From a virus, in IMG/VR virus record IMGVR_UViG_3300034073_001700, positions 56,143 to 120,142 of that record: DNA of 64,000 nucleotides; one strand, written 5' to 3'. The position numbers and the translations under genes were made by a program. Below, piece by piece: positions 2,857 through 58,947 of this stretch. The stretch's first letter is position 1. Each line of letters begins with the position of its first letter. The notes below the pieces were generated by a model. That model had not been told where the DNA came from and did not search any database. It was given only the letters and a program-made list of their open reading frames with translations.

Positions 2857-2862
2857 ATAGAG

Positions 2863-3546
2863 ATGGAAAAAATATATTTAGATGAAGACAAAAAGGTTTG
2901 GATTATTGAAAACTTCCTTACCGAAGAAGAACTAAAATGGTTTAAAGAGCAAACCGACGATGAAAATGGGTGGTACCCAACAATGAGGTCTCCATATAGA
3001 AATATATTAAATAAATTTTTAAATATCGTTCCAAGATATGACGACACTGGTAACATTATATTCCCAGATGAAAACTCTCAAGTATTACAACTAGAAATTT
3101 TTACTAAACCTGGCGGAATTTGGGATAGACTTGAATCTGTATTGCCACCAGTATATGGAAGACATGCTACATTACAATCTTTTAAGTATATGACAGATGA
3201 AGAAATAAAGGAAGCAGTAAACGATACATTATTAAGAGAATATAAGATTAAAGTTGAAGATATAGACTTTGCTATGTACTGGCATCAAGATCCAGATGAA
3301 GAGCAGAACATAATTTGTTCTTTTAGTCTTTACCTAAACGACGACTTTGAAGGTGGAGAATTGGAATTTGCAGAAGTTCCAATCAAACTAAAGCCAAAGG
3401 CTGGGACCTTGGCCGTAATACCTGGCGGACATAAGTATCGACATAGGGTAAATAAGGTGTTAGGCCCTAATTCACGTCATACCCTATATGGAAACTCTTT
3501 TATAGATGCTTCTAAGATACCTCAAAGCACAAAAGATGACTGCTAA
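2863..3546 (+). CDS. prolyl 4-hydroxylase-like 2OG-Fe(II) oxygenase
   Basis: IIENFLTEEE, WHQD, LYLNDDFEGGELEF, HRV...R motifs. Confidence 0.85.
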   Translation: MEKIYLDEDKKVWIIENFLTEEELKWFKEQTDDENGWYPTMRSPYRNILNKFLNIVPRYDDTGNIIFPDENSQVLQLEIFTKPGGIWDRLESVLPPVYGRHATLQSFKYMTDEEIKEAVNDTLLREYKIKVEDIDFAMYWHQDPDEEQNIICSFSLYLNDDFEGGELEFAEVPIKLKPKAGTLAVIPGGHKYRHRVNKVLGPNSRHTLYGNSFIDASKIPQSTKDDC

Positions 3547-47438: not shown

Positions 47439-48073
47439 TATGCCTCTTCCAAACTTATAGATATGTCCCAAAAATCGAATGTACTTCCACCACGCCTATT
47501 AACAGAATAAGAAAAGTCAGCAAAAAATACTTCTACCAATTGATTATATTGTGGTAGATGTGCATAGGCAGAATCGTCTTTTCCAAATACTGAATATTTA
47601 TCATATGCTAGATAACACCAGAATGAGCCCTGATGGTTTTCATACCAATCTAATACTTCTACGCCTCCCGCTCCACCATCACTTGTATACTGCTGTGTTG
47701 GATCCGTAAACTGCGGTTTTCCGTTAGAGTCAAAATCACCAGACAAAGGAAAGGCTCTTGATGGCAAATTGTTGTACGAAAGAGATATTTGTAATTTATC
47801 TGCAATATGGTAAGACCTCATTCGTCCATTAATCATTCTTTCTCTTTTTTCAATTCTATTAATGCCAAACTCTATTGGAGATCTATTGTCATCAGATAAT
47901 ACTAAGAACTGATCTATATTTGCTGGATCTGTTTCAGAACCAGGGTTAGCATTAATCTCAAGTCCGTTAGGTATATACAAACCATTTTCTAGTTTGCCAG
48001 GATTTTCTGCCCATAGCATTGCCTGAGGTCTTTGATATTTTTTACGACCAATCATATATGTGCTAGTTGCCAT
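47438..48073 (-). CDS. distal tail protein-like
   Basis: Immediately after the TMP; RMINGRMRSY...WDISISLEE. Confidence 0.65.
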   Translation of the reverse strand: MATSTYMIGRKKYQRPQAMLWAENPGKLENGLYIPNGLEINANPGSETDPANIDQFLVLSDDNRSPIEFGINRIEKRERMINGRMRSYHIADKLQISLSYNNLPSRAFPLSGDFDSNGKPQFTDPTQQYTSDGGAGGVEVLDWYENHQGSFWCYLAYDKYSVFGKDDSAYAHLPQYNQLVEVFFADFSYSVNRRGGSTFDFWDISISLEEA

Positions 48074-51000
48074 TATATTCTTACACCTCTCAATCCTTGT
48101 GAATTAACTCTTTGAATGTGTGTCATTACTGCCCTTGCGATATCATCTGGGTTGGCATCAGACTTAACATTTACGTTAATACTATAATTATACACTGAAT
48201 CACCAACTGCTTCGCCACTATTAATAGCCTTCATTTTATCTAGACCGTAAGATTGAACAGCATATTTATTCATTACAAATTCTCCAGGAGTAAGCATTGC
48301 TGGTATCTTGTCAGATCCCCTTGCAAATCCTCCTGCTGCTAAATATTTAGGCTTAATAAATCCACCCTTAGATTCAAATAGCATTCCATACTTTCCACCG
48401 CCACCACCGAATGTGGGCTTAGAAGCATTTGAGGCTACGGTTGCTGCAGCCATAGCAGCAAGTTTTGTGCGTTCATCAACGACATTTGGTCCTGTTGTTG
48501 GATTTTTTAAAACATCAGTTAATTCATCTATATGTTCTTTAAGTATAAAATTAATTCCTGTTCCAGCATCTGTTGATTTTCTCAACTCTGTAAGAGAGTC
48601 AATTTGATCCCTAACTTGGTCAGCAGTAAATTCGGTTCCTCCAGGACTTGTAAGAACAACATTGGAGCCTCCACCGCCTCCGCCTCCGCCTCCGCCACCT
48701 GGGCTTCCTCCTGGGCCTTCAACTGTACTGCCAACAACGTAGTTTACGGTTACAGTAACGCTTTTATCTTTTATAGAATCATATAAATCTTTAATTCTCT
48801 TCCAAGTTTCTTCAGCAGTCATTGTGTCTTTATTAAATAGAGCAAGTGCATCAGCAATATCTTTTCTTAGTTTTTCATCCATCAGAGTTTGTTGAGCAAG
48901 CATTTGCTCCCACTGCTCTCTAGTCATTCCAGCAATTTCTCTGTTACGATCATTAGCCTCAATAATATTTCCAAGTTTAATTAATTGATATTCTAAAGCA
49001 AGATTTTTAACAGTTTCAATATCAAGTTGTTGCTGTAATGGGAAAATCTTATCTTGTTCAATCTGGTATATTCTTTCTTCGTGTTCTCTAATCTTAAGTA
49101 ATTTATCTTCTCGTTTTTCTTCAATAGTATAGATAGCATCCTTGGCCTCTTGAATACTTTTTTCAAGTGCTAATCTTGTAGGGTCATTTTCTAGTGCATA
49201 AATTTCTCTTGATATCTGCCAACGGCGCTCCTCAATTTGTTCTCTAGTCATACCTTGAGCATTTGTCAAAGCATCGATAGCATTTTCTCTTGCTTGTCCA
49301 AGAACATCGGATTGGCTCGTAGCAAAGTCTTCTGCACTTGATGCCCTCATATCTTGTGCTGCTCGTGCTGCTGCAGCGATATCTCCTTGTGTCAAGGCAT
49401 CTGCAAGATCTAACTGTTGTTCTTGCTGCCTAATAATAGACTCATTAACCTTTTGAACTTCTTCCAATGCTTTTGCTTGGTCTTCATATGTATCATTAAT
49501 TTTCTTTGCCTGGTAATCCATGACCTCAAGATCGTTGGACAATATATTGGACTCATCTTGAAGCGTCTTAATTGGACGCTCATACTGCATCTCTATTTCA
49601 CGTTCCCAATCGCTTATCTGTTCTTTAAGATCTTCTAAGACATACTTTAGTTTTCCAGTTACCTTCTTGCCGTCAACTGTTAAATCGAACTCGGCAACAT
49701 CCATATTTTCAATAGATCTTTCAATCTGTTCAATTTCTGAACGAATCATAGAAATCTGATGTTCATAAATTGCTAGTTGTGCATTTAATTCTGCAAGTGT
49801 TTCATTACTTTCAGCGCTCAATCTTTCTAATTGCTTAAAGTTTTTACTGTTAAACTGGCTTACTCCTGTCTCGTCACCAAATCCAGAGGCTTGAGACTTT
49901 AGTGTATACTGATCCATCGTCCTATATGCATCAAAAACCTTCATCGCTGCATCGTATGCTTTTTGGAATCTTTCAAGAGGAGTCATCAAATTCTTTTCTA
50001 AATCCTTGGCAACTTCTGCATTATTTATAAAATCAAACAATTGCTTAAATCCATCTTCTGCCTTTAAGGTTCCAGCATTTATTGCTTCCATAATTGCAAC
50101 CATGGATATTAAATCTTCTGGATCTTGTATTGCATCATATATAGATGTGATGCTTAAGGAAACCTGATTACCTTGGTCATCTATAGTTTTTAATTGGCTT
50201 AAGAAATTGATAAGGTCTGGAGCCTTTTGAAGTGCCGAAATTCTTGTTTCGCTTTGCTGGGTTTTATCTGTTATACTTTTGATTTGTTCTCTTAATAATG
50301 CTTGTTTTTGTAATGCAGCATTTGTCTGTAACTCTTTCTTAGTTATTTCTCCAGTGGCAATAGCAGTTACATATGCCTGATTTTCCATAGCCTTTTCTAT
50401 TTCTAAATTAGACAAACCTAATCCCTTTAGTGTTTTATATGCCACCTCTTGTTCTTTTAGACTCTTTAATAAATCTTTTTGTGCTAACTGGAATTCTCCA
50501 ACTACCGCCTTGTCAAATGCTTGGCGCATTGTATTACCTTTTTCTGTTAATACAAAGTCACCCTTCTTAAACTTAACAGTTCGTGTTTGCATTTTGCCAG
50601 TTTCATAATCAAACTCTTTGTATTTTCTTTTTCCAGCCTTAGTAGCGGTTGCACCAAATTTCTTTTGTTCTTGAGGATCAAGTCCAGTAATGTAGTTAAT
50701 GAAGTCTCTGCTTAGGCCTTGCTTCATCATCTGCTGCTCAATACCCACAAACTTATCGGCTACTGATTTATCTCCAGATGCAGCAATTGCCTTTTGTAAT
50801 TCTTTAAAGCCTCCTGCTGCATTTATGGCCGCATTTCTAACATTTTTTAATCTAGCGAGTATATCAGCAAAAGGATTCTTTTTAGAGCCATCGTTTGGTG
50901 TATTAACAGATGAAGCAGCATTACTTTCAATATCCTGCCTTACTCTTTGCATTGTCCTGTCGGCAGCCAAATATTGTCTTACTGACTCTCTTCCAGCCTC

Positions 51001-54000
51001 AGTTCGATAATAATCTGCTACGGTTGAAGCGCCACCAGCAGCGTCTATTCGTTGTGCTATTTCTGAATCAATTGCATCATCCGTAATAAATTTGTGCAAT
51101 GTTACATATTCTTGTATTACTGTTTTTTTAGTTTCATCGTCAAGATTTTCAAATTCTGACCATCTTTCCAATATACCCTCTAAACTTACACCCCCCAACT
51201 CTTCAACTTCTGTTAATGCCTTAAGTGTAAATGGACCTTTGTGGTCTTCTACTGCCTGCAAAGAATCGGCCAAATCATTTAATCTTTCTGTTGCATCCTC
51301 GCCCTCAAAAAATGCTTTTAGATCTACTTCTTTACCATCCATTTTTTGCAGCAATGCAATTGATGACATTAACTTATCTGCTTGTTCTGGATTTTCTTTT
51401 GACATCTTAACAAGCATTTTAATATTTTTCTTGCCAACCTTGGGATCCATTCCACTAAAGAAATTAACTATCTCCATAAACTTTCCTGGATCTTGGTACT
51501 TAAGTGCTGCGTTTAATGTTTTCTGAAGTCCCTTTTCATCCTCAGCAAACATTGTCATCAATGAGGTAGCAGCCATAGGGCTTAATTGTCCAGAAGCAAC
51601 TACAGTATCTATTATAACTTCTAACTCTTTGCTGTCAAGGTTGGCAGCCTGCTTTAAAAATGCTTCTGTCATGGGATCATCTGCCCATTTTGTTTTTACT
51701 TGACTCTTCAAAGAATCAAAAAATGCATCCTCTATTGCACCTCTTTGTTGTGCTACCTTAAATGATGCCAACTGATCTTTCATAATATCTTTATTTACCA
51801 ATCTTAATTCTTTTGACTGTGACTCTTGATCAGATTTTAATTTTGCAATTTTTTCATCTAACTCTGCCTGTTTTGCTTTATCAGTTGTTGAGGCTTTTTG
51901 TTTTTCTAATATCGCAATTTCTTTTTCATATTGCAAATTCAATGAGTCTATCTGTGCCTGATTGAACTCTAAGTTTTGTGCACCGTAAGCAGCAGCGCCT
52001 GAAGCCATGGCTTCTCCAGCAGTTTGAGTAAACATTTCTGCTGCAGAGTATTGTAAAAATCCTGGAGCCAGCCTATCTCCCAGAGAAGTTCCTTGTAGTA
52101 AGCCTCCCAGTGCTGTCATAGGACCAATTCCTGGAATAACTATTTTTGAAGCCTGAGAAATAAGATTTTCAGCACTAGTGTTATAACTTGATAAGTTATT
52201 TGCTAGTCCGCCACTTATCTGCTCTGAAACATCCCTTTGAGCATTAACTAGATTTACTCTTACCTCAAGAGGATTTTTTAGTAGATCCTCACCACTTGGT
52301 CCTATTAAGTCTAATAACTCAGCACTAATTTTTGCACCTAATGCAGTATTCCTTAAATTTAAACCTATCGCTTCCGCAACACTATGAGCCTGTTCTGCAG
52401 ACAAAATACCATCTGATACATATCCTGCTAGTTGGATAGACATTTGTTGAGCAGAAACCTCTGCTCCATTTCTAACAATGTTTTCTTTTATTCCTTCAAA
52501 TACTTCTTTGCCAACTTCGCTCTCTAAAAATGTAGTTCCAAATGGCTGCTTTCCTCTTTCAAAACCAGTAACAAATCTATCTGACGCTTGCTGATTTCTT
52601 CTTTTTGACATTATTTCTGATGCGCCAACCTTATTTGTTATTTCCCCAATTCTAGCCATTCTTGCTGTGGTAGATGTTGTAGCATCAACTAGTTTAGATG
52701 TTGCCTCTGCCTGATCCCTACTCTTTTTATTTAAGTAAATAAGCGTTCCCCCAAGGGCTAAGGCTGCTGCTCCTGCTGCTACATAAGGATTCATAAGCAT
52801 AGGAGCCATACCAGCGACTGCTGATGCTCCCATTAATCCCATGCCCATACCCGTATTTCCAGAAAACATTGCTGCCATACCAGCAGTTCCAAGAGCCATT
52901 GACATACCGCCAGAGAATCTACCAACTCTTTCCTGACTTGCCATTCTTCTATCCTGTGCTGCCTTTTTTTCACTTTGCTTTTTTGCTTTTAATTCTCTAT
53001 CCTGACCTTCTTTAACAGCAGCATCATAGTTTGTCATATATGCATAATTTAATTTATCACGTCTTACTTGTTCAGCAAATGCTTTTTTAGAAGCCTCTGC
53101 TGATTTCTTTTGAACATTTGCCTGTTCTCTTTGTCTGTAGGCCTCAGTTCTTGCTGCTTTTTCTGATGCAGCAGTTTGTGTTTCTTTAATTCTAAGTTCT
53201 TTCTTTGCCAACTTTTTTAAAATTTTATCAATTTCACTTTGGCTATATCCCTTACTGCGTAGGTCAGCAGCAATATTTCCTTGACGAACTGTAGGATTTT
53301 TTACTGTTGTATCTCCTGGAGTTCCTGTTATTCTGCCTGGTAGTAATGGAACTGGACGAACTCCTCCACCTCTAGGATAATATGTGTATTTCTTTTCATC
53401 TCCCAGGATGGTGTCTTTTGGACTACCGCCAAGACGCTGCGCTCCTGAAGGTGCTGACTGACCTCCACGAACAATAGAAACCTCTCCTGTCTTATTATTA
53501 ACACGAATCTCACCAGGTGCTACCAAAACCTTTCCTGACTGTGCTGCAGAAAGATCCATCAATCTTCCTGGCTTTATTGTGCTACCTGGATCAAGTACAG
53601 CCTGGAGCGCCTGCATGTGTGTAACAGAACTCTTAGACAAAAATCGCTTTGGAATCTTATTGCCTCTTGCAGATGCTTCTAATGCCAATTGATCTAACTG
53701 GGCAGACCTCGCTACTAATGCTCTTTCTGTTGCATTTATTGGATGCCTTCCTTTAGACATAAACTCTGCTGCTTTTTGATATTCATTTATCTGTGCTACA
53801 TTTAAAAATGGATTACCCTTCTTTCCAGCAGCAAGTAATTCCATTTGTTTTTTATTCCAATTTACAATTTCCAATGGGCTCTTTTGTCTTCTCATATAGT
53901 CATTTACGATTCTGGCATCATACATTCCAAAGCCAGTCTTCATAGACTGTGATCCCTGACGCTCTCCTAATTGATGTCCTTGTAGGTGAGATAACTCTGG

Positions 54001-57000
54001 TCTTAATAAATATCTAATATCGGCATCGGCATATCCTGCCCGACTTAATAGTTGACCCGCTCTTGTCTTAACAGAGTCTCCTCTTCTTGCCAAGAAGGAC
54101 TTCCTTTCTTCATCAGCAATTGCCCTTACAGTCTTGGACAATAAAGAACTTCCGCCACCAGCACCCTTGTTAGATGTCTGTAAATCAAAAGCAAATGCTG
54201 ATGCGTTTAGTGCTCTTGACTTACTTAAATCTCCTCCGCCAACAAATCTACCACTTGCATCTGGTCTTAGTCCCATTCTATAAAGACCACGTTCAAGGAT
54301 ATGTTCTTTAGTTCTTGCATGTTTTATTTGATTGTCTGGATCTCTAGAGAATTTATCCATATCTGCTTTAGAAACATAAAGAGTTTGATCTCCAACTTTA
54401 ACTGGAACCATATCCTTTAGTACTTGTGCAAATTGACTTTGTCTAGCAGATTGGAATGATCCTTGACCTTTCCATGCTTTCTCAATTTGTGCTGCCCTAT
54501 CTGGATTGGTTGACTTTAATCTTTCTAAATCTCTTGCAAACTCATTATCAAAATCATTAACCAGTTGTGAAGATATTCTAGACATTTGACTTTCTGCAAC
54601 CATATACTTGGATAACGCCCTTTGCATACTTCTTTCATTTTGAGAAGGATCGAGACCAACCTCATACTTAGGTACTTTTTGTCCAGCAGCAACATGAACA
54701 GAATGTAGTTTTTGCCAATCTACTTTTTTGCCAGCGTCTAATCTAGCATACATATTTTCATAAACTTGTTTTTCTACAGGATTCAAATTCCAACTATCGA
54801 TAAGTTTTCTAAGTTTAGGAAGGGATTTGTCTATTTCTTTAACAATCATTTGCTCATATTGCTTAGGAGTCATCTTTGCTGCTAAAGCAGATGTTTCCTG
54901 TGCAAAGAACTTCTTAGCGCCACCCTTTACTCCAAGAAGATTAATCATACCCATCTCTCCCATTCCAGGAAGAACTGTTTGATAATCTCTAAATCCAGAG
55001 GCTCTTGCAAATACTCCAGCAGTGCCAGGATCTGCTAAAACCTTACCAAATACATTTGAAGGAGATAAATCTTTATCCGCTCTCAAGGTAGATGCCACTA
55101 ACTGAGTAGTCATTTCTTTTTGAGTAAACTTACCAGTAGATTCTGCAATTCTATTATCATATGGGGATTCGAGAACAATAATCTTTCTCTTACGGGCAGG
55201 ATCTGTTGGATCCATCATTGTCTTAATGGTTTGCTTTGGAGATACTAAACCATGAACCTTTCTTGCTATCTCTGTAGCACGAACCTCAGCCAATGCTGTC
55301 TTTTCATCCATTGTTGGTTTAACTACTACCATCTTGCCGTCTGGCTTTCTGTATACCCCGCCAACTCCAGGTATTGGGAAACTACGACCAGAGAATGGTT
55401 GTACCAAGGTTCCAAAATCTGTAGGCTTCATCTTTCCAAATCTGCCAGACTTAACTGCTTTATCTATTTGATCTGCGACTAATCTTTGTGACTGTGTCTC
55501 TGCAAAACTCTTAGGACCCTTTAGATCTATTGGACCAGTTTGTTTTGTTGGATGAGCATTTCCCCAAGGTAATCGTCCTGTGCTAAATCCAGGAACTTTA
55601 TCTTGGAACATTGCAGTAATTAGGCCACGATACTTCTGTGAAGTTTTTGCTGGTATGATTGCTTCACCTGGAGAAACCATTGCAGGTACAACATCTCCAG
55701 CCCCCTTAGGTCCTGGAACACTTATAACGCCATCGGCATACTTTTTAACTGGTGGCAATCCCTTAACTGCTGTTCTTGCTCCTGCTGCACCACCCATAAA
55801 CAAACCTGGATTTTGAGCAGCCAGCGCTCTCATCTGTGTGCTTAATGCTCCATAGGATGCAGAAAGTTGCTGAATTGCAACCTTTTCAACATTAAATACT
55901 TCGGTTAATCTAGTGTGAGTATTATGAAGTGCTTGAGATGCTGCTTGGTTTTCTAATTCTTGTTGTGTAACATAATCAAAACCGCCACCAAGTATTTTAT
56001 TTTGTCCATTAAGTTTTGCTATTCCCCCACGCAATACTGCAAATAGTTTAATTAAGTTTGCTACGCCGTTAGCAACTAGACCAAATGTCATAAGGGCAAT
56101 AGGGCCAATGCCAGCAAGTACTGCGGTTACTACAGCAAATACCTTTTTTGTACCGTCACTTAGTCCATTAAATTTTTCTAATAAACTGGAGAAGAATTTT
56201 ACTACTGGAGTTAAAGCCTCTAGGAATGCCTTTCCTAATGGCATAATATCTTGCTTGAATTGTTCCATTGCTGCCTGGAATTTAAACCCAGTTGCTTCTT
56301 CAATTTTTTTCATTTCTCGTTCAGACATAACTGCTAATTCTTCAATAGATGCGCCAGCCAAATCGAATGCTCTTGACGCCTGAGATCCGTCCCTGACAAC
56401 ATTCTGGAATAGTGTTGATAAACGAGCAAACTGGAATTTACCAAACAACTGCTCAATTGCACGTGCACGAGTAAGAGGATCTAGTTCATCTAAGGCTCTT
56501 GCGAATCCTACAACAACACCCTTAATGTCTCCCTGATTAGCCTCAACAATTCCGTTTATGTTAACGCCCATATCAGCAAGCATCTTGCTTGCTTTTTCTG
56601 TTGGGTTGATAAGAGAGGCAAGGCCTGACTTAAGTGCGTTTGCACCCTGTGATGCATTAATACCGCCTTCCTTCATTGCTGTTAAAAAGAATGCAAGGTC
56701 TTCAACGGTACCACCCAACTGCTTAACTACTGGAGCGGCCTTAGGAATTGCAATCGTTAAATCTTCAATAGAAAGCAAAGTTTGGTTTTCAACAGCATTA
56801 AGAAAGTTAATCTTTTCTGCAAGTTGATCTGATGATAAGCCAAAAGCAGTCTGCAAAGAAATAGTTGTTTCCAGTGCCTGCTGTTGCTCTACCTGCCCAA
56901 GCACTGCTAACTTGCTTGCTGTTTTGATTTGCTGCTCTAAATCTCTACCCTGAAAGCCTGCTGCAGCAGCATCTGCAGCCATAGCCATTGTGTCCTTAAC

Positions 57001-57795
57001 TGCAACACCAAACTTAACATATTCGTTTGCTATTGTTCTTACATTTTCTACAGCAGCATTAGTCTCTGCTTCATTTGTAAATGCGTCACCATAAACACGT
57101 CTAAACTTTATTATTTCTTTTTCTAATTCTCTAAATGACTTTGCTGCATAGCCACCCAACATGGCCAATGGTATTGTTAAACCAACCATCAACTGACGAC
57201 CAGCCCACTGCGTGTTCTTACCAAAGTTTAAAAGTTGTGTTGAACCTTGTCTTAATAATTGATTTAAGAATTGTTGTCTTTGTGCTGCATATTGAATTCT
57301 AGTTCCAAGTTCTGTAAATTGACCATTAGCCATCATCAGCGTTCTTGGCATAATTCGCATTGCATTAACAAAGCCACCCTGAGCCTTGGCCATTTGTATG
57401 TATTGTGACTGTAGTGCTTTTACTCTATCTCTACGTGCACGGTTAATTATCTCACGCTCTTGTGCAAACATCCTAGATAAAGTTCTAGTATTAGCCGTAG
57501 CGGCAGCAGCAGAATATCTAAAATATTCTTTAAGACTTAATTTATTTTTTTCTAAAGCAGTTGTAAAAGCAAGTGTACTAGTTGCAACTGCTTTTTGACT
57601 TACAGCAAACTTTCCATTTGCAGCGATGCTTTGTGCTAGGGCAGCATTAAGGCCCTTCTGAGCATTGGCAGCAGCAAGATTACCTTCGGCTAAAGTTTGA
57701 TGGAATTTACTTAAACCTGCCTGAAGTCGTCTTAACTGACCAAGTGCACCAGCCGTGTCAAAATCTATGCCTATACGAGCATTAACATCTGACAC
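48073..57795 (-). CDS. tape measure protein (TP901-type core) with internal enzymatic cassette(s)
   Basis: 3240 aa, helical and Ala-rich, TM segments, follows the tail chaperones; kinase-like motifs at aa ~810-925. Confidence 0.92.
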   Translation of the reverse strand: MSDVNARIGIDFDTAGALGQLRRLQAGLSKFHQTLAEGNLAAANAQKGLNAALAQSIAANGKFAVSQKAVATSTLAFTTALEKNKLSLKEYFRYSAAAATANTRTLSRMFAQEREIINRARRDRVKALQSQYIQMAKAQGGFVNAMRIMPRTLMMANGQFTELGTRIQYAAQRQQFLNQLLRQGSTQLLNFGKNTQWAGRQLMVGLTIPLAMLGGYAAKSFRELEKEIIKFRRVYGDAFTNEAETNAAVENVRTIANEYVKFGVAVKDTMAMAADAAAAGFQGRDLEQQIKTASKLAVLGQVEQQQALETTISLQTAFGLSSDQLAEKINFLNAVENQTLLSIEDLTIAIPKAAPVVKQLGGTVEDLAFFLTAMKEGGINASQGANALKSGLASLINPTEKASKMLADMGVNINGIVEANQGDIKGVVVGFARALDELDPLTRARAIEQLFGKFQFARLSTLFQNVVRDGSQASRAFDLAGASIEELAVMSEREMKKIEEATGFKFQAAMEQFKQDIMPLGKAFLEALTPVVKFFSSLLEKFNGLSDGTKKVFAVVTAVLAGIGPIALMTFGLVANGVANLIKLFAVLRGGIAKLNGQNKILGGGFDYVTQQELENQAASQALHNTHTRLTEVFNVEKVAIQQLSASYGALSTQMRALAAQNPGLFMGGAAGARTAVKGLPPVKKYADGVISVPGPKGAGDVVPAMVSPGEAIIPAKTSQKYRGLITAMFQDKVPGFSTGRLPWGNAHPTKQTGPIDLKGPKSFAETQSQRLVADQIDKAVKSGRFGKMKPTDFGTLVQPFSGRSFPIPGVGGVYRKPDGKMVVVKPTMDEKTALAEVRATEIARKVHGLVSPKQTIKTMMDPTDPARKRKIIVLESPYDNRIAESTGKFTQKEMTTQLVASTLRADKDLSPSNVFGKVLADPGTAGVFARASGFRDYQTVLPGMGEMGMINLLGVKGGAKKFFAQETSALAAKMTPKQYEQMIVKEIDKSLPKLRKLIDSWNLNPVEKQVYENMYARLDAGKKVDWQKLHSVHVAAGQKVPKYEVGLDPSQNERSMQRALSKYMVAESQMSRISSQLVNDFDNEFARDLERLKSTNPDRAAQIEKAWKGQGSFQSARQSQFAQVLKDMVPVKVGDQTLYVSKADMDKFSRDPDNQIKHARTKEHILERGLYRMGLRPDASGRFVGGGDLSKSRALNASAFAFDLQTSNKGAGGGSSLLSKTVRAIADEERKSFLARRGDSVKTRAGQLLSRAGYADADIRYLLRPELSHLQGHQLGERQGSQSMKTGFGMYDARIVNDYMRRQKSPLEIVNWNKKQMELLAAGKKGNPFLNVAQINEYQKAAEFMSKGRHPINATERALVARSAQLDQLALEASARGNKIPKRFLSKSSVTHMQALQAVLDPGSTIKPGRLMDLSAAQSGKVLVAPGEIRVNNKTGEVSIVRGGQSAPSGAQRLGGSPKDTILGDEKKYTYYPRGGGVRPVPLLPGRITGTPGDTTVKNPTVRQGNIAADLRSKGYSQSEIDKILKKLAKKELRIKETQTAASEKAARTEAYRQREQANVQKKSAEASKKAFAEQVRRDKLNYAYMTNYDAAVKEGQDRELKAKKQSEKKAAQDRRMASQERVGRFSGGMSMALGTAGMAAMFSGNTGMGMGLMGASAVAGMAPMLMNPYVAAGAAALALGGTLIYLNKKSRDQAEATSKLVDATTSTTARMARIGEITNKVGASEIMSKRRNQQASDRFVTGFERGKQPFGTTFLESEVGKEVFEGIKENIVRNGAEVSAQQMSIQLAGYVSDGILSAEQAHSVAEAIGLNLRNTALGAKISAELLDLIGPSGEDLLKNPLEVRVNLVNAQRDVSEQISGGLANNLSSYNTSAENLISQASKIVIPGIGPMTALGGLLQGTSLGDRLAPGFLQYSAAEMFTQTAGEAMASGAAAYGAQNLEFNQAQIDSLNLQYEKEIAILEKQKASTTDKAKQAELDEKIAKLKSDQESQSKELRLVNKDIMKDQLASFKVAQQRGAIEDAFFDSLKSQVKTKWADDPMTEAFLKQAANLDSKELEVIIDTVVASGQLSPMAATSLMTMFAEDEKGLQKTLNAALKYQDPGKFMEIVNFFSGMDPKVGKKNIKMLVKMSKENPEQADKLMSSIALLQKMDGKEVDLKAFFEGEDATERLNDLADSLQAVEDHKGPFTLKALTEVEELGGVSLEGILERWSEFENLDDETKKTVIQEYVTLHKFITDDAIDSEIAQRIDAAGGASTVADYYRTEAGRESVRQYLAADRTMQRVRQDIESNAASSVNTPNDGSKKNPFADILARLKNVRNAAINAAGGFKELQKAIAASGDKSVADKFVGIEQQMMKQGLSRDFINYITGLDPQEQKKFGATATKAGKRKYKEFDYETGKMQTRTVKFKKGDFVLTEKGNTMRQAFDKAVVGEFQLAQKDLLKSLKEQEVAYKTLKGLGLSNLEIEKAMENQAYVTAIATGEITKKELQTNAALQKQALLREQIKSITDKTQQSETRISALQKAPDLINFLSQLKTIDDQGNQVSLSITSIYDAIQDPEDLISMVAIMEAINAGTLKAEDGFKQLFDFINNAEVAKDLEKNLMTPLERFQKAYDAAMKVFDAYRTMDQYTLKSQASGFGDETGVSQFNSKNFKQLERLSAESNETLAELNAQLAIYEHQISMIRSEIEQIERSIENMDVAEFDLTVDGKKVTGKLKYVLEDLKEQISDWEREIEMQYERPIKTLQDESNILSNDLEVMDYQAKKINDTYEDQAKALEEVQKVNESIIRQQEQQLDLADALTQGDIAAAARAAQDMRASSAEDFATSQSDVLGQARENAIDALTNAQGMTREQIEERRWQISREIYALENDPTRLALEKSIQEAKDAIYTIEEKREDKLLKIREHEERIYQIEQDKIFPLQQQLDIETVKNLALEYQLIKLGNIIEANDRNREIAGMTREQWEQMLAQQTLMDEKLRKDIADALALFNKDTMTAEETWKRIKDLYDSIKDKSVTVTVNYVVGSTVEGPGGSPGGGGGGGGGGGSNVVLTSPGGTEFTADQVRDQIDSLTELRKSTDAGTGINFILKEHIDELTDVLKNPTTGPNVVDERTKLAAMAAATVASNASKPTFGGGGGKYGMLFESKGGFIKPKYLAAGGFARGSDKIPAMLTPGEFVMNKYAVQSYGLDKMKAINSGEAVGDSVYNYSINVNVKSDANPDDIARAVMTHIQRVNSQGLRGVRI

Positions 57796-57818: not shown

Positions 57819-58151
57819 TTATTTTTTACCGACTGTATTTAGAATATCTGCGGTATCTACACCTTGAAGATTTACTCCAGATGCTACGTCGATTATCTTA
57901 TATACAGTTGGAAGATCGATATTATTTTCTAGTTCCTCACGATCATCGGCAAGTTCTGGCTTGTATTGTTTAAGTGCAATCTGTACACAATCTAGCAATA
58001 CGTCCATTGATTTATCATTATCGTCGGCGACTGATGTTAAGTCCGCAAACCTTTTCATGAAAGGTCTTAGAAGCGAGATTTTTAGTGGTACCGCCTTTAG
58101 TACTGATCCGTCAATTAGTTTAATTTCTGATGGCTGAGTTTTGTCTGCCAT
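57819..58151 (-). CDS. tail assembly chaperone (short, G-like)
   Basis: Between major tail and TMP; paralog of the N-half of 58196..58888; TGGTATAAT plus AAGGAGG. Confidence 0.75.
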   Translation of the reverse strand: MADKTQPSEIKLIDGSVLKAVPLKISLLRPFMKRFADLTSVADDNDKSMDVLLDCVQIALKQYKPELADDREELENNIDLPTVYKIIDVASGVNLQGVDTADILNTVGKK

Positions 58152-58195: not shown

Positions 58196-58888
58196 TTATT
58201 TTTTTGTTAAATCTTCGTAGTCCAAACCCATGCCAATTCCAAAGCCAGCCTTTTGAGCATTATATCCTTGTAGGGAAGTGATGTCATTAGGGTCTTTTGT
58301 TTTGCCCTTACTGAATACCCTCGACTTCATCTCTTCCCAAGCGTTATTATTATTTTTACCAGTTTGCTTGTCAAGATCTACCCCCTGCATAGCAGCAAGA
58401 AATTTTTTGCTATCATAATCAAGATCTCTTTTTACCTTTAGGGTTGCCATAATTTCTGGCATAGATAAAGAAGACTCTAATTCATCATAGTCTCTCCATA
58501 TGCCAAGCAGAAATAGTTCTGATTCTAGTTTAGCCAAATCTAACGTATCCCATGTGGATCCGCTTTCTATTGCTTGATCCTTTACTGGCTCTTCAGAGTT
58601 TTTATTTATTTTTATACCTGCAGCAATATATAACAATTTGTATATACTTGGTAAATCAATTTTATCTTCCATCTCTTCTATTGTTTTTATTGATGGATAA
58701 TATTGTTGCATGCTAATTAGTGCACATTTTGATAATGCTGACATTGCCTCGTCGTCGTCTCTAGCATTTTTAACTTCTTCAAAAACAACCATAAAATCTC
58801 TTAAGTATTTTACTTTTAATGGCGTAAGAAAAACACTTGTGCCATCAATTAAAATAATATTATCTGTATCATATATTTTTGTTGCCAT
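58196..58888 (-). CDS. tail assembly chaperone (long, GT-like)
   Basis: G-like N-half plus W..YDELE..LSMPE C-half; leaderless TGCTATAAT-N6-ATG 58888. Confidence 0.75.
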   Translation of the reverse strand: MATKIYDTDNIILIDGTSVFLTPLKVKYLRDFMVVFEEVKNARDDDEAMSALSKCALISMQQYYPSIKTIEEMEDKIDLPSIYKLLYIAAGIKINKNSEEPVKDQAIESGSTWDTLDLAKLESELFLLGIWRDYDELESSLSMPEIMATLKVKRDLDYDSKKFLAAMQGVDLDKQTGKNNNNAWEEMKSRVFSKGKTKDPNDITSLQGYNAQKAGFGIGMGLDYEDLTKK

Positions 58889-58903
58889 TACTTTATTATA
58901 GCA

Positions 58904-58947
58904 AACAGAAAAGCCCAGCCTTTTCAAATATGACTGGGCTATCTGTT
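58904..58947 (-). terminator. terminator after the major tail gene
   Basis: AACAGATAGCCCAG...CTGGGCTTTTCTGTT inverted repeat with T-tract. Confidence 0.7.

Follow-up and report, generated by a model that had tools for sequence, protein, structure and literature searches.

An optional, putatively kinase-like cassette in the tape measure protein of an uncultured phage

The DNA analysed here (the window) comprises 64,000 nucleotides, positions 56,143 to 120,142 of IMG/VR virus record IMGVR_UViG_3300034073_001700, and forms the right-hand 64 kb of a complete, uncultured 120,142-bp record with direct terminal repeats. It encodes a 3,240-amino-acid (aa) tape measure protein (TMP) in which an internal segment carries a near-invariant active-site pattern and is predicted to adopt a protein kinase fold. 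On balance, we lean towards reading aa ~741-1039 of this protein as an optional cargo cassette, a catalytically competent atypical kinase-like enzyme that would be delivered with the TMP to act on the host. The atypical class to which it would belong includes CotH, CtkA, PI4KII, Fam20 and HipA. A first-pass annotation of the window had proposed a HipA/PI3K-like kinase cassette spanning 54664-55587 (minus strand; TMP aa 737-1044), and these limits need shifting by only a few residues to coincide with the natural excision boundaries, two short repeated peptides at aa 733-740 and 1040-1047 that we refer to as fences.

Conservation and predicted fold of the kinase-like segment

The open reading frame that contains the segment encodes a TMP (Table 1), as established both by its family matches and by its position among tail genes. 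The family PF10145 (PhageMin_Tail) matches the product with an E-value of 2.8e-26, its 93.1 bits lying well above the cut-off (33.2), and 11 PHROG TMP families match the N-terminal ~650 aa (best phrog_10030, E 1.5e-98). A script check of positions recovered all five kinase motifs at the residues given in the first-pass annotation, including a D909-to-N914 spacing of D-x4-N, and the globular kinase-fold cassette with intact Lys/Glu/Asp/Asn/Asp that it described inside the TMP is borne out by residue conservation and by the predicted fold.

Residue counts were obtained from a hidden Markov model (HMM) alignment of 265 proteins. K826 is kept in 250 of 251 sequences (His in one) and E837 in 253 of 255 (Asp in two), while the catalytic loop retains D907 in 256 of 263 (Asn in seven), D909 in 262 of 263 and N914 in 262 of 262, followed by D922 (262/262) and G924 (257/262). 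Positions of the Gly-rich loop (G813, 251/251; G812, 220/251; Y815, 245/251) and two further residues, S877 (259/261) and Q898 (261/262), are also strongly retained. The Lys/Glu/Asp/Asn/Asp residues, whose loss in homologues would have spoken against the first-pass proposal, are therefore near-invariant, and the most distant homologues (27-36% identity) keep the full catalytic set, the exceptions being one Lys-to-His replacement and one truncated row. Identity per 60-aa bin across 264 homologues is 0.49-0.62 at aa 781-1020 versus 0.23-0.43 in most of aa 1021-2760, where a single exceptional bin reaches 0.53. The segment is among the best-conserved parts of the TMP and its motif match is not due to chance; the active-site pattern points to an enzyme under selection rather than a spacer.

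The domain is widespread, being found at E<=1e-3 in 542 giant proteins (1,782-5,670 aa) among 3,866 candidates, mostly from environmental metagenomes (JGI, ENA). A search of 1.84 billion representatives gave 163 clusters at 50% identity, which with few exceptions are longer than 1,200 aa. A tblastn search with aa 637-1144 gave no match in 50,697 deposited phage records (E 1e-5). A scan of one genome per species across 185,579 bacterial and archaeal species with a second alignment (A2), which relied on three peptide patterns and may miss distant relatives, identified a single locus among 94 pattern matches. This locus (L119; cassette 53% identical) lies on an 85,019-bp contig of a GTDB metagenome-assembled genome (MAG) labelled uncultured Bifidobacterium, and is probably a binned phage contig. 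Short homologues come from contigs of 2.2-3.2 kb (P0264, P0256 and P0204), 7.5 kb (P0213) and 44 kb (P0253).

One of these short homologues, P0264 (652 aa, on a 2,427-bp metagenomic contig), is the most distant among the matches listed, at 27% identity. A PAMLTPGEFV motif comes after its kinase-like domain, and a HAD-type phosphatase domain (PF03767, E 1.2e-6) comes next; the phosphatase is flanked by two copies of a ~20-residue peptide, so that it looks like a second fenced cassette beside the kinase.

An AlphaFold2 (AF2) model of the segment was built from an alignment (A1) of the window segment, relatives translated from IMG/VR loci and a few short homologues. It has a mean predicted local distance difference test (pLDDT) score of 78.8, with 10-residue block means of 69-98, mostly above 80, over model residues 51-320 and values exceeding 90 in the core. 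The order of its elements (strands 77-81, 94-97 and 103-109; helix 112-129; strands 137-142 and 152-159; helix 173-186; then a helical C-lobe) is that of a protein kinase, with two strands around the Gly-rich loop, the VVVK strand, a long helix bearing E837 and two strands leading to the hinge, after which come a helix ending in R905, the DKDLSPSN loop, LADPG and the helical C-lobe. The motifs would accordingly fall on canonical elements, namely the β3 Lys, the αC Glu, the catalytic loop after αE and the DFG-like Asp. As modelled, the bilobal architecture, comprising an N-lobe β-sheet with αC and a helical C-lobe, is that of the protein-kinase-like (PKL) superfamily, and the PKL catalytic set (Gly-rich loop, β3 Lys, αC Glu, D-x4-N, DFG-like Asp) appears in its canonical order when placed by the order of DSSP elements.

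Structural comparisons of the model were in agreement. All 47 Foldseek matches listed for the PDB were kinases, headed by YabT (E 3e-4, probability 1.0) and CtkA, with PI4KIIα at rank 12 (probability 0.99). Among the 50 matches listed by VIA-align against 48,161 representative chains, all were kinases or kinase-fold phosphotransferases; CotH was best (Z 11.3, 218 residues aligned, root-mean-square deviation (rmsd) 4.1), followed by MavQ (10.3), PI4KIIα (9.8), CtkA (9.4), Fam20 (8.9), ATM (8.7), Vps34 (8.5) and HipA (8.4), where rows no more than 1 Z unit apart count as ties. VIA-align re-scoring of the Foldseek list gave CtkA 10.8 (203 aligned), PI4KIIα 9.9 and LepB 9.2, with all 50 rows again kinase-fold. 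The top BFVD matches were large multidomain phage proteins named portal, ADP-ribosyltransferase or PI3/4-kinase-domain, and the Atlas language-model neighbours, which serve as leads only, included HipA_2 (20 of 30 hits), LepB_N and a viral cluster with PI3_PI4_kinase in 16% of its members. AF2, Foldseek and VIA-align thus agree on the kinase fold by which the first-pass proposal was to stand or fall. The moderate and partly tied Z values fix the fold class (atypical kinases) and not the family.

The cassette in related tape measure proteins

BLAST layouts show that the N-terminus of the TMP is conserved to ~aa 740 and that homology resumes at ~aa 1600 (about 1560-1654, mostly 1595-1616), with a hypervariable slot between the two that is flanked by hydrophobic clusters at aa 550-588 and 1627-1688. 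Probing with TMP aa 181-600 yielded 80 related loci at 66-84% identity, and an HMM of the kinase core detected the domain in 32 of them; loci were scored as lacking it on no more than the ~1,500 aa that follow the N-terminal match. On a tree of the first 720 aa (75 rows, with six loci left out as too short to judge), 33 TMPs carry the cassette and at least four gains or losses are needed to explain its distribution. A clade of 33 comprises 31 TMPs with the cassette and two nested members without it, its sister clade of 38 has none, and two of the four outgroup members have it, there displaced to aa ~990-1340, the position seen in L115 and L116. Comparing related TMPs, as the first-pass annotation had suggested, thus shows a variable slot in which the cassette may be present, missing or shifted.

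Both nested losses are clean. The kinase-less L045 and L035 (contigs up to 117 kb) are 76% identical to the window over aa 1-788, with homology resuming at aa 1040; a single fence in L045, KVPGFEEG, directly joins the two flanks that are separated in the window by the cassette and its two fences (Table 1). Likewise, kinase-less L064 and kinase-bearing L055 share 90% identity over 747 aa and differ by precise removal of the cassette, the junction reading ...GYMAG|SIPELSP... in L064 versus ...GYMAG|KIP...[kinase]...KLMAG|FIPELSP... in L055. These losses indicate that the module is discrete and bounded by short repeated peptides, and that the TMP works without it. The expression (K)xP(G/K)(F/Y)xxG for the fence is present in the window, L037, L045 and L115 and absent from L055, L064, L069, L116, L090 and L073; because the L055/L064 pair has a related ...MAG-x-IP junction instead, the fence is a family of short peptides and not one fixed motif.

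In the kinase-less sister clade (L071-L114) the slot holds 380-900 aa of other sequence, and nine alternative slot sequences from kinase-less relatives gave no Pfam hit. In the L090 slot, which looks Ala/Glu/Lys-rich by eye, the first ~400 aa are common to few of 28 relatives.

The nearest cultured phages are Streptomyces phages of 120-130 kb, with 27-31% identity in the TMP N-terminus and 41% in the capsid. The 2,100-aa TMP of Streptomyces phage Gilson, the nearest cultured relative tested, aligns solely to aa 31-742 of the window TMP and gave no significant hit to the kinase HMM (best domain 0.8 bits with filters off). From these relatives and the Bifidobacterium-labelled MAG, an actinobacterial host may reasonably be supposed.

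Possible role, alternatives and known systems

Several observations weigh against the reading of the segment as a delivered kinase. No Pfam kinase family was found for the domain with either the 308-aa or the 508-aa segment (E<=10), which gave only a trace of DUF4795, and no kinase-type match was found in 22 members of A2 (E<=1), where traces of AOC_like, YopE_N and RB18 occurred in two members each. The segment matched 0 PHROG families, a phmmer search of the PDB gave 0 hits and a PDB profile search with A1 two noise hits only. An hhalign comparison of A2 with E. coli K-12 HipA returned a probability of 0.1 and an E-value of 0.42 over an irrelevant region, the sensitivity being limited by an Neff of 1.9 and a single-sequence template. 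Because there is no sequence-level link to any kinase, the call rests on the predicted model and motif order. The structural scores are middling (Z <=11.3, rmsd 4-5 Å, 8-14% identity, Foldseek TM 0.2-0.36), unmatched models often reach a best Z of 7-8 according to VIA-align's own note, and the placement of the K/E/D/N/D residues was read from secondary-structure order rather than by superposing active sites. A kinase needs ATP, which is lacking outside the cytoplasm, and the reading presumes that the slot reaches the cytoplasmic side of the membrane. A siphovirus tail tube should also be too narrow for several folded domains of ~30 kDa next to one another, so that unfolding and refolding must be assumed. 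Furthermore, close relatives do without the cassette, and any benefit from it would therefore be conditional. In some homologues the domain is found further along, at aa 2188-2464 or 2859-3120, so that a few of the calls of absence, made over the ~1,500 aa inspected, could be wrong.

Given the lack of Pfam and PDB sequence matches and the failed HipA profile comparison, the module is better described as kinase-fold than as a member of the HipA or PI3K family. The HipA/PI3K-PI4K-like label of the first-pass annotation can be retained at the level of fold class and was dropped as a family assignment. CotH, CtkA, MavQ, PI4KIIα and Fam20C score statistically level with HipA and PI3K or higher. The entire PKL superfamily shares the D-x4-N...D order of motifs, which is consequently not diagnostic of either. 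The domain appears to represent a kinase-fold family without Pfam annotation.

The best structural neighbours, CotH (a Bacillus spore-coat atypical protein kinase, PDB 5jda, PF08757) and CtkA (Helicobacter pylori, 3akk), share with the model an atypical kinase fold and helical C-lobe, but are only 8-14% identical, function in another biological context and have Z values tied with several atypical kinases; membership of the CotH family was rejected for lack of a Pfam match, despite its leading Z of 11.3. PI4KIIα (4hnd), Vps34 and the Legionella proteins MavQ and LepB (PF00454, PF18640) resemble the domain in fold (Z 8.5-10.3), D-x4-N spacing and the following Asp, and MavQ and LepB are effectors delivered via a type IV secretion system. 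Assignment to PI3K/PI4K was nevertheless rejected, with fold similarity alone (Z 8.5-9.9) in its favour: there is no PF00454 match, the PI3K helical solenoid is absent and, where these kinases have the DRH of a DRHxxN loop, the domain has DKD-L-S, keeping the spacing without the R or H. The HipA/HipT toxin kinases (PF07804, PF20613) are similar in fold (Z 7.9-8.4) and HipA_2 is the commonest Atlas neighbour, but this family was also rejected, as the domain has neither a Pfam match nor, in the hhalign comparison of limited sensitivity, profile homology to it and is internal to a structural gene whose neighbours are tail genes, with no HipB-type antitoxin context.

We propose the following for the topology, delivery and activity of the cassette. 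Siphophage TMPs are expelled from the tail and form a DNA conduit (Chaban et al., Nat Commun 2024, PMC10770324). Copies of the window TMP would be built into the tail with the cassette in a non-native or extended state and expelled at infection, whereupon their hydrophobic segments would insert in the host membrane to form the conduit. The slot loop and its kinase could then refold on the cytoplasmic side, where ATP is available, held by the flanking hydrophobic segments, and, ahead of all phage gene expression, phosphorylate a host target at the entry site or close to it. This target would be a protein or possibly a membrane lipid; the substrate is not predictable from the model, in which protein and lipid kinases are equally near in fold and share the D-x4-N spacing. 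The virion RNA polymerase of phage P23-45, which is fused to the TMP, offers an analogy that makes such delivery plausible; as in that case, the predicted enzyme domain lies within the TMP polypeptide.

A distinctly smaller chance is given to an active kinase-fold enzyme with a non-protein substrate, that is a membrane lipid or envelope precursor at the entry site, such as phosphatidylinositol, whose modification would help pore formation or DNA passage and not host takeover. Lipid kinases are among the nearest structures (MavQ 10.3, PI4KIIα 9.8-9.9, LepB 9.2, Vps34 8.5-8.9) and the Atlas neighbours include LepB_N and PI3_PI4 clusters, but protein kinases score the same or higher (CotH 11.3, CtkA 10.8, Fam20C 9.3, HipA 8.4), and because rows within 1 Z unit are ties the fold does not discriminate between substrates. 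A cassette between two hydrophobic clusters would be held at the membrane, and in its catalytic loop a Ser takes the place of the Lys in the DLKPEN of Ser/Thr protein kinases. Actinobacterial membranes contain phosphatidylinositol, and both the Streptomyces phage relatives and the Bifidobacterium-labelled MAG fit an actinobacterial host, although that host is itself inferred. Less probable again is that the kinase acts in the producing cell, where unassembled TMP would phosphorylate itself, tail or host proteins late in infection and the domain would be a passenger in the virion or be removed from it. Both ATP and the folded state would be guaranteed in the producer cytoplasm, whereas they must be assumed after ejection, and the fence peptides and the recurring PAM(V/L)(S/T)PGE motif could be processing sites. 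A late-acting kinase, however, needs no fusion inside a structural protein, and yet the fusion is kept across the 163 clusters, nearly all of giant proteins, with one locus in the 185,579 species genomes; the cassette is always inside the TMP, between hydrophobic clusters, and in the P23-45 precedent the enzyme works after entry (PMC10770324).

Of the three alternatives only the last is disfavoured by the data, namely that the kinase fold performs other chemistry (such as the AMPylation or glutamylation of some pseudokinase-like enzymes) or none, serving as a structural spacer or binding module, and we consider it very unlikely. Kinase-fold proteins with non-kinase chemistry exist, the cassette is dispensable in relatives, and the activity that we favour is itself a prediction from the model. 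The full phosphotransfer set (Gly loop, β3 Lys, αC Glu, D-x4-N, DxG) is nonetheless near-invariant down to 27% identity, which would be unexpected of a spacer, and plain spacers in this slot look quite different, since in the kinase-less sister clade the first ~400 aa of the slot show little conservation and the slot appears Ala/Glu/Lys-rich by eye.

A broader and more speculative extension, to which we attach a rather low probability, is that the TMP middle is a general payload slot, in which fences let folded enzyme cassettes insert, excise and move by recombination, as in polymorphic toxins. Its cassettes would include this kinase, the HAD phosphatase beside the kinase in one distant homologue and modules without an assigned fold. 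On this view the kinase, tethered to the membrane and acting on lipid or protein, would modify the host at the pore through which the DNA enters, only seconds after adsorption. Abundant uncultured phages, probably infecting actinobacteria, would in that case possess an effector system that works ahead of transcription.

TMPs are usually seen as rulers and conduits, and enzyme-bearing examples are already known. T5 pb2 and mycobacteriophage TMPs contain embedded cell-wall hydrolase modules used at entry, which resemble the cassette as enzymatic modules in a TMP but act on peptidoglycan outside the membrane and have no need of ATP. The sole cytoplasm-acting enzyme so far shown within a TMP is the virion RNA polymerase of Thermus phage P23-45 (Chaban et al., PMC10770324), where the N-terminal part of the 5,002-aa gp96 is a working polymerase that transcribes pre-early genes. 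A fragment of that TMP (327-1124) was crystallised, and the authors hypothesise that the polymerase acts at the TMP pore after ejection (PMC10770324). As in the window TMP, the enzyme is embedded in the N-terminal quarter of a giant siphophage TMP; it differs in being an RNA polymerase, experimentally active and from a Thermus phage, whereas the window TMP has a predicted kinase fold. Predicted kinases have also been described in the polyvalent proteins of phages and conjugative elements, multidomain proteins of large size that are presumed to accompany the invading DNA and that show cassette-like variability (Iyer et al., J Bacteriol 2017, PMC5512222). That kinase family is described as lacking the whole C-terminal subdomain, while the domain described here has a predicted helical C-lobe, and the paper contains 0 occurrences of tape measure proteins (PMC5512222).

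In the literature searched, whose coverage leaves out most subscription journals and supplements, we found nothing relevant on a kinase in a TMP. The apparent novelty is a new enzyme class, a kinase fold, in an enzyme-bearing TMP. If active, a kinase conserved across hundreds of giant TMPs would add to such proteins a second enzyme class, possibly one that modifies the host, and siphophages could deliver post-translational or lipid-modifying effectors before any gene expression. Relatives that differ in having or lacking the kinase, yet share 76-90% identity at the N-terminus, form natural pairs ready for comparison.

Remainder of the slot and neighbouring genes

The coordinates of the TMP gene and the features within it are given in Table 1.

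Table 1. Features of the tape measure protein gene in the window
Feature	TMP aa	Position	Strand	Basis or remark
Tape measure protein gene		48073..57795	-	Single open frame, 3,240 aa, GTG start
PhageMin_Tail (PF10145) domain	262-452	56440..57012	-	Pfam match
First hydrophobic cluster, probable membrane hairpin	550-588	56032..56148	-	Kyte-Doolittle 19-residue window up to 2.18
PAMVSPGE motif	704-711	55663..55686	-	First of two copies, just before slot
Left fence peptide KVPGFSTG	733-740	55576..55599	-	Sequence comparison with L045
Kinase-fold core (predicted)	790-1040	54676..55428	-	AF2 model, structural matches, core HMM
Gly-rich loop PGVGGVY	809-815	55351..55371	-	Between first two strands of model
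K826 codon (putative β3 lysine) of VVVK (aa 823-826)	826	55318..55320	-	On model strand 103-109
E837 codon (putative αC glutamate) of AEVRA (aa 836-840)	837	55285..55287	-	In model helix 112-129
Putative catalytic loop DKDLSPSN (D907, D909, N914)	907-914	55054..55077	-	Directly after model helix 173-186
DFG-like LADPG (D922)	920-924	55024..55038	-	Conservation of D922 and G924
Right fence peptide KVPKYEVG	1040-1047	54655..54678	-	Following sequence aligns with that after single L045 fence
Rest of slot	1048-1600	52996..54654	-	AF2 model; no fold assigned
Second hydrophobic cluster, Gly/Ala/Met-rich	1627-1688	52732..52917	-	Read from translation; only aa 1670-1688 passes hydropathy threshold
PAMLTPGE motif	3165-3172	48280..48303	-	Second copy, near C-terminus

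The rest of the slot is also present in kinase-less L045. The stretch aa 1081-1620 can be aligned in just 36-49% of the 264 homologues, and the residues invariant in 18 sequences are Y1172, G1175, H1270 (in ELSH), G1288, N1298, H1351 and P1352. An AF2 model of aa 1041-1620 (mean pLDDT 76.9), searched whole with its terminal helix included, gave only coiled-coil matches to that helix in VIA-align (Z <=7.3), no Foldseek match at E<=0.001, no Pfam hit and no usable Atlas hit. The PAM(V/L)(S/T)PGE motif, which stands ahead of the slot (aa 704-711), again close to the C-terminus and also after the P0264 kinase, may be a processing or docking site.

The window is AT-rich (GC 0.32-0.44). Upstream of the TMP gene are a capsid-like gene, an immunoglobulin (Ig)-domain/major-tail-like gene and two tail-chaperone-like phrog_10504 genes, and downstream are minor tail genes, an arrangement consistent with a siphovirus tail module. 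The two genes directly upstream (57819-58151 and 58196-58927, minus strand) both match phrog_10504, the longer one with an extra phrog_10474 part, which fits a duplicated tail-chaperone pair better than a frameshifted G/GT pair. The TMP also has, towards its C-terminus, a Gly/Ser/Pro-rich stretch with at least 10 glycines in a row (aa 3033-3042; 48670-48699, minus strand).

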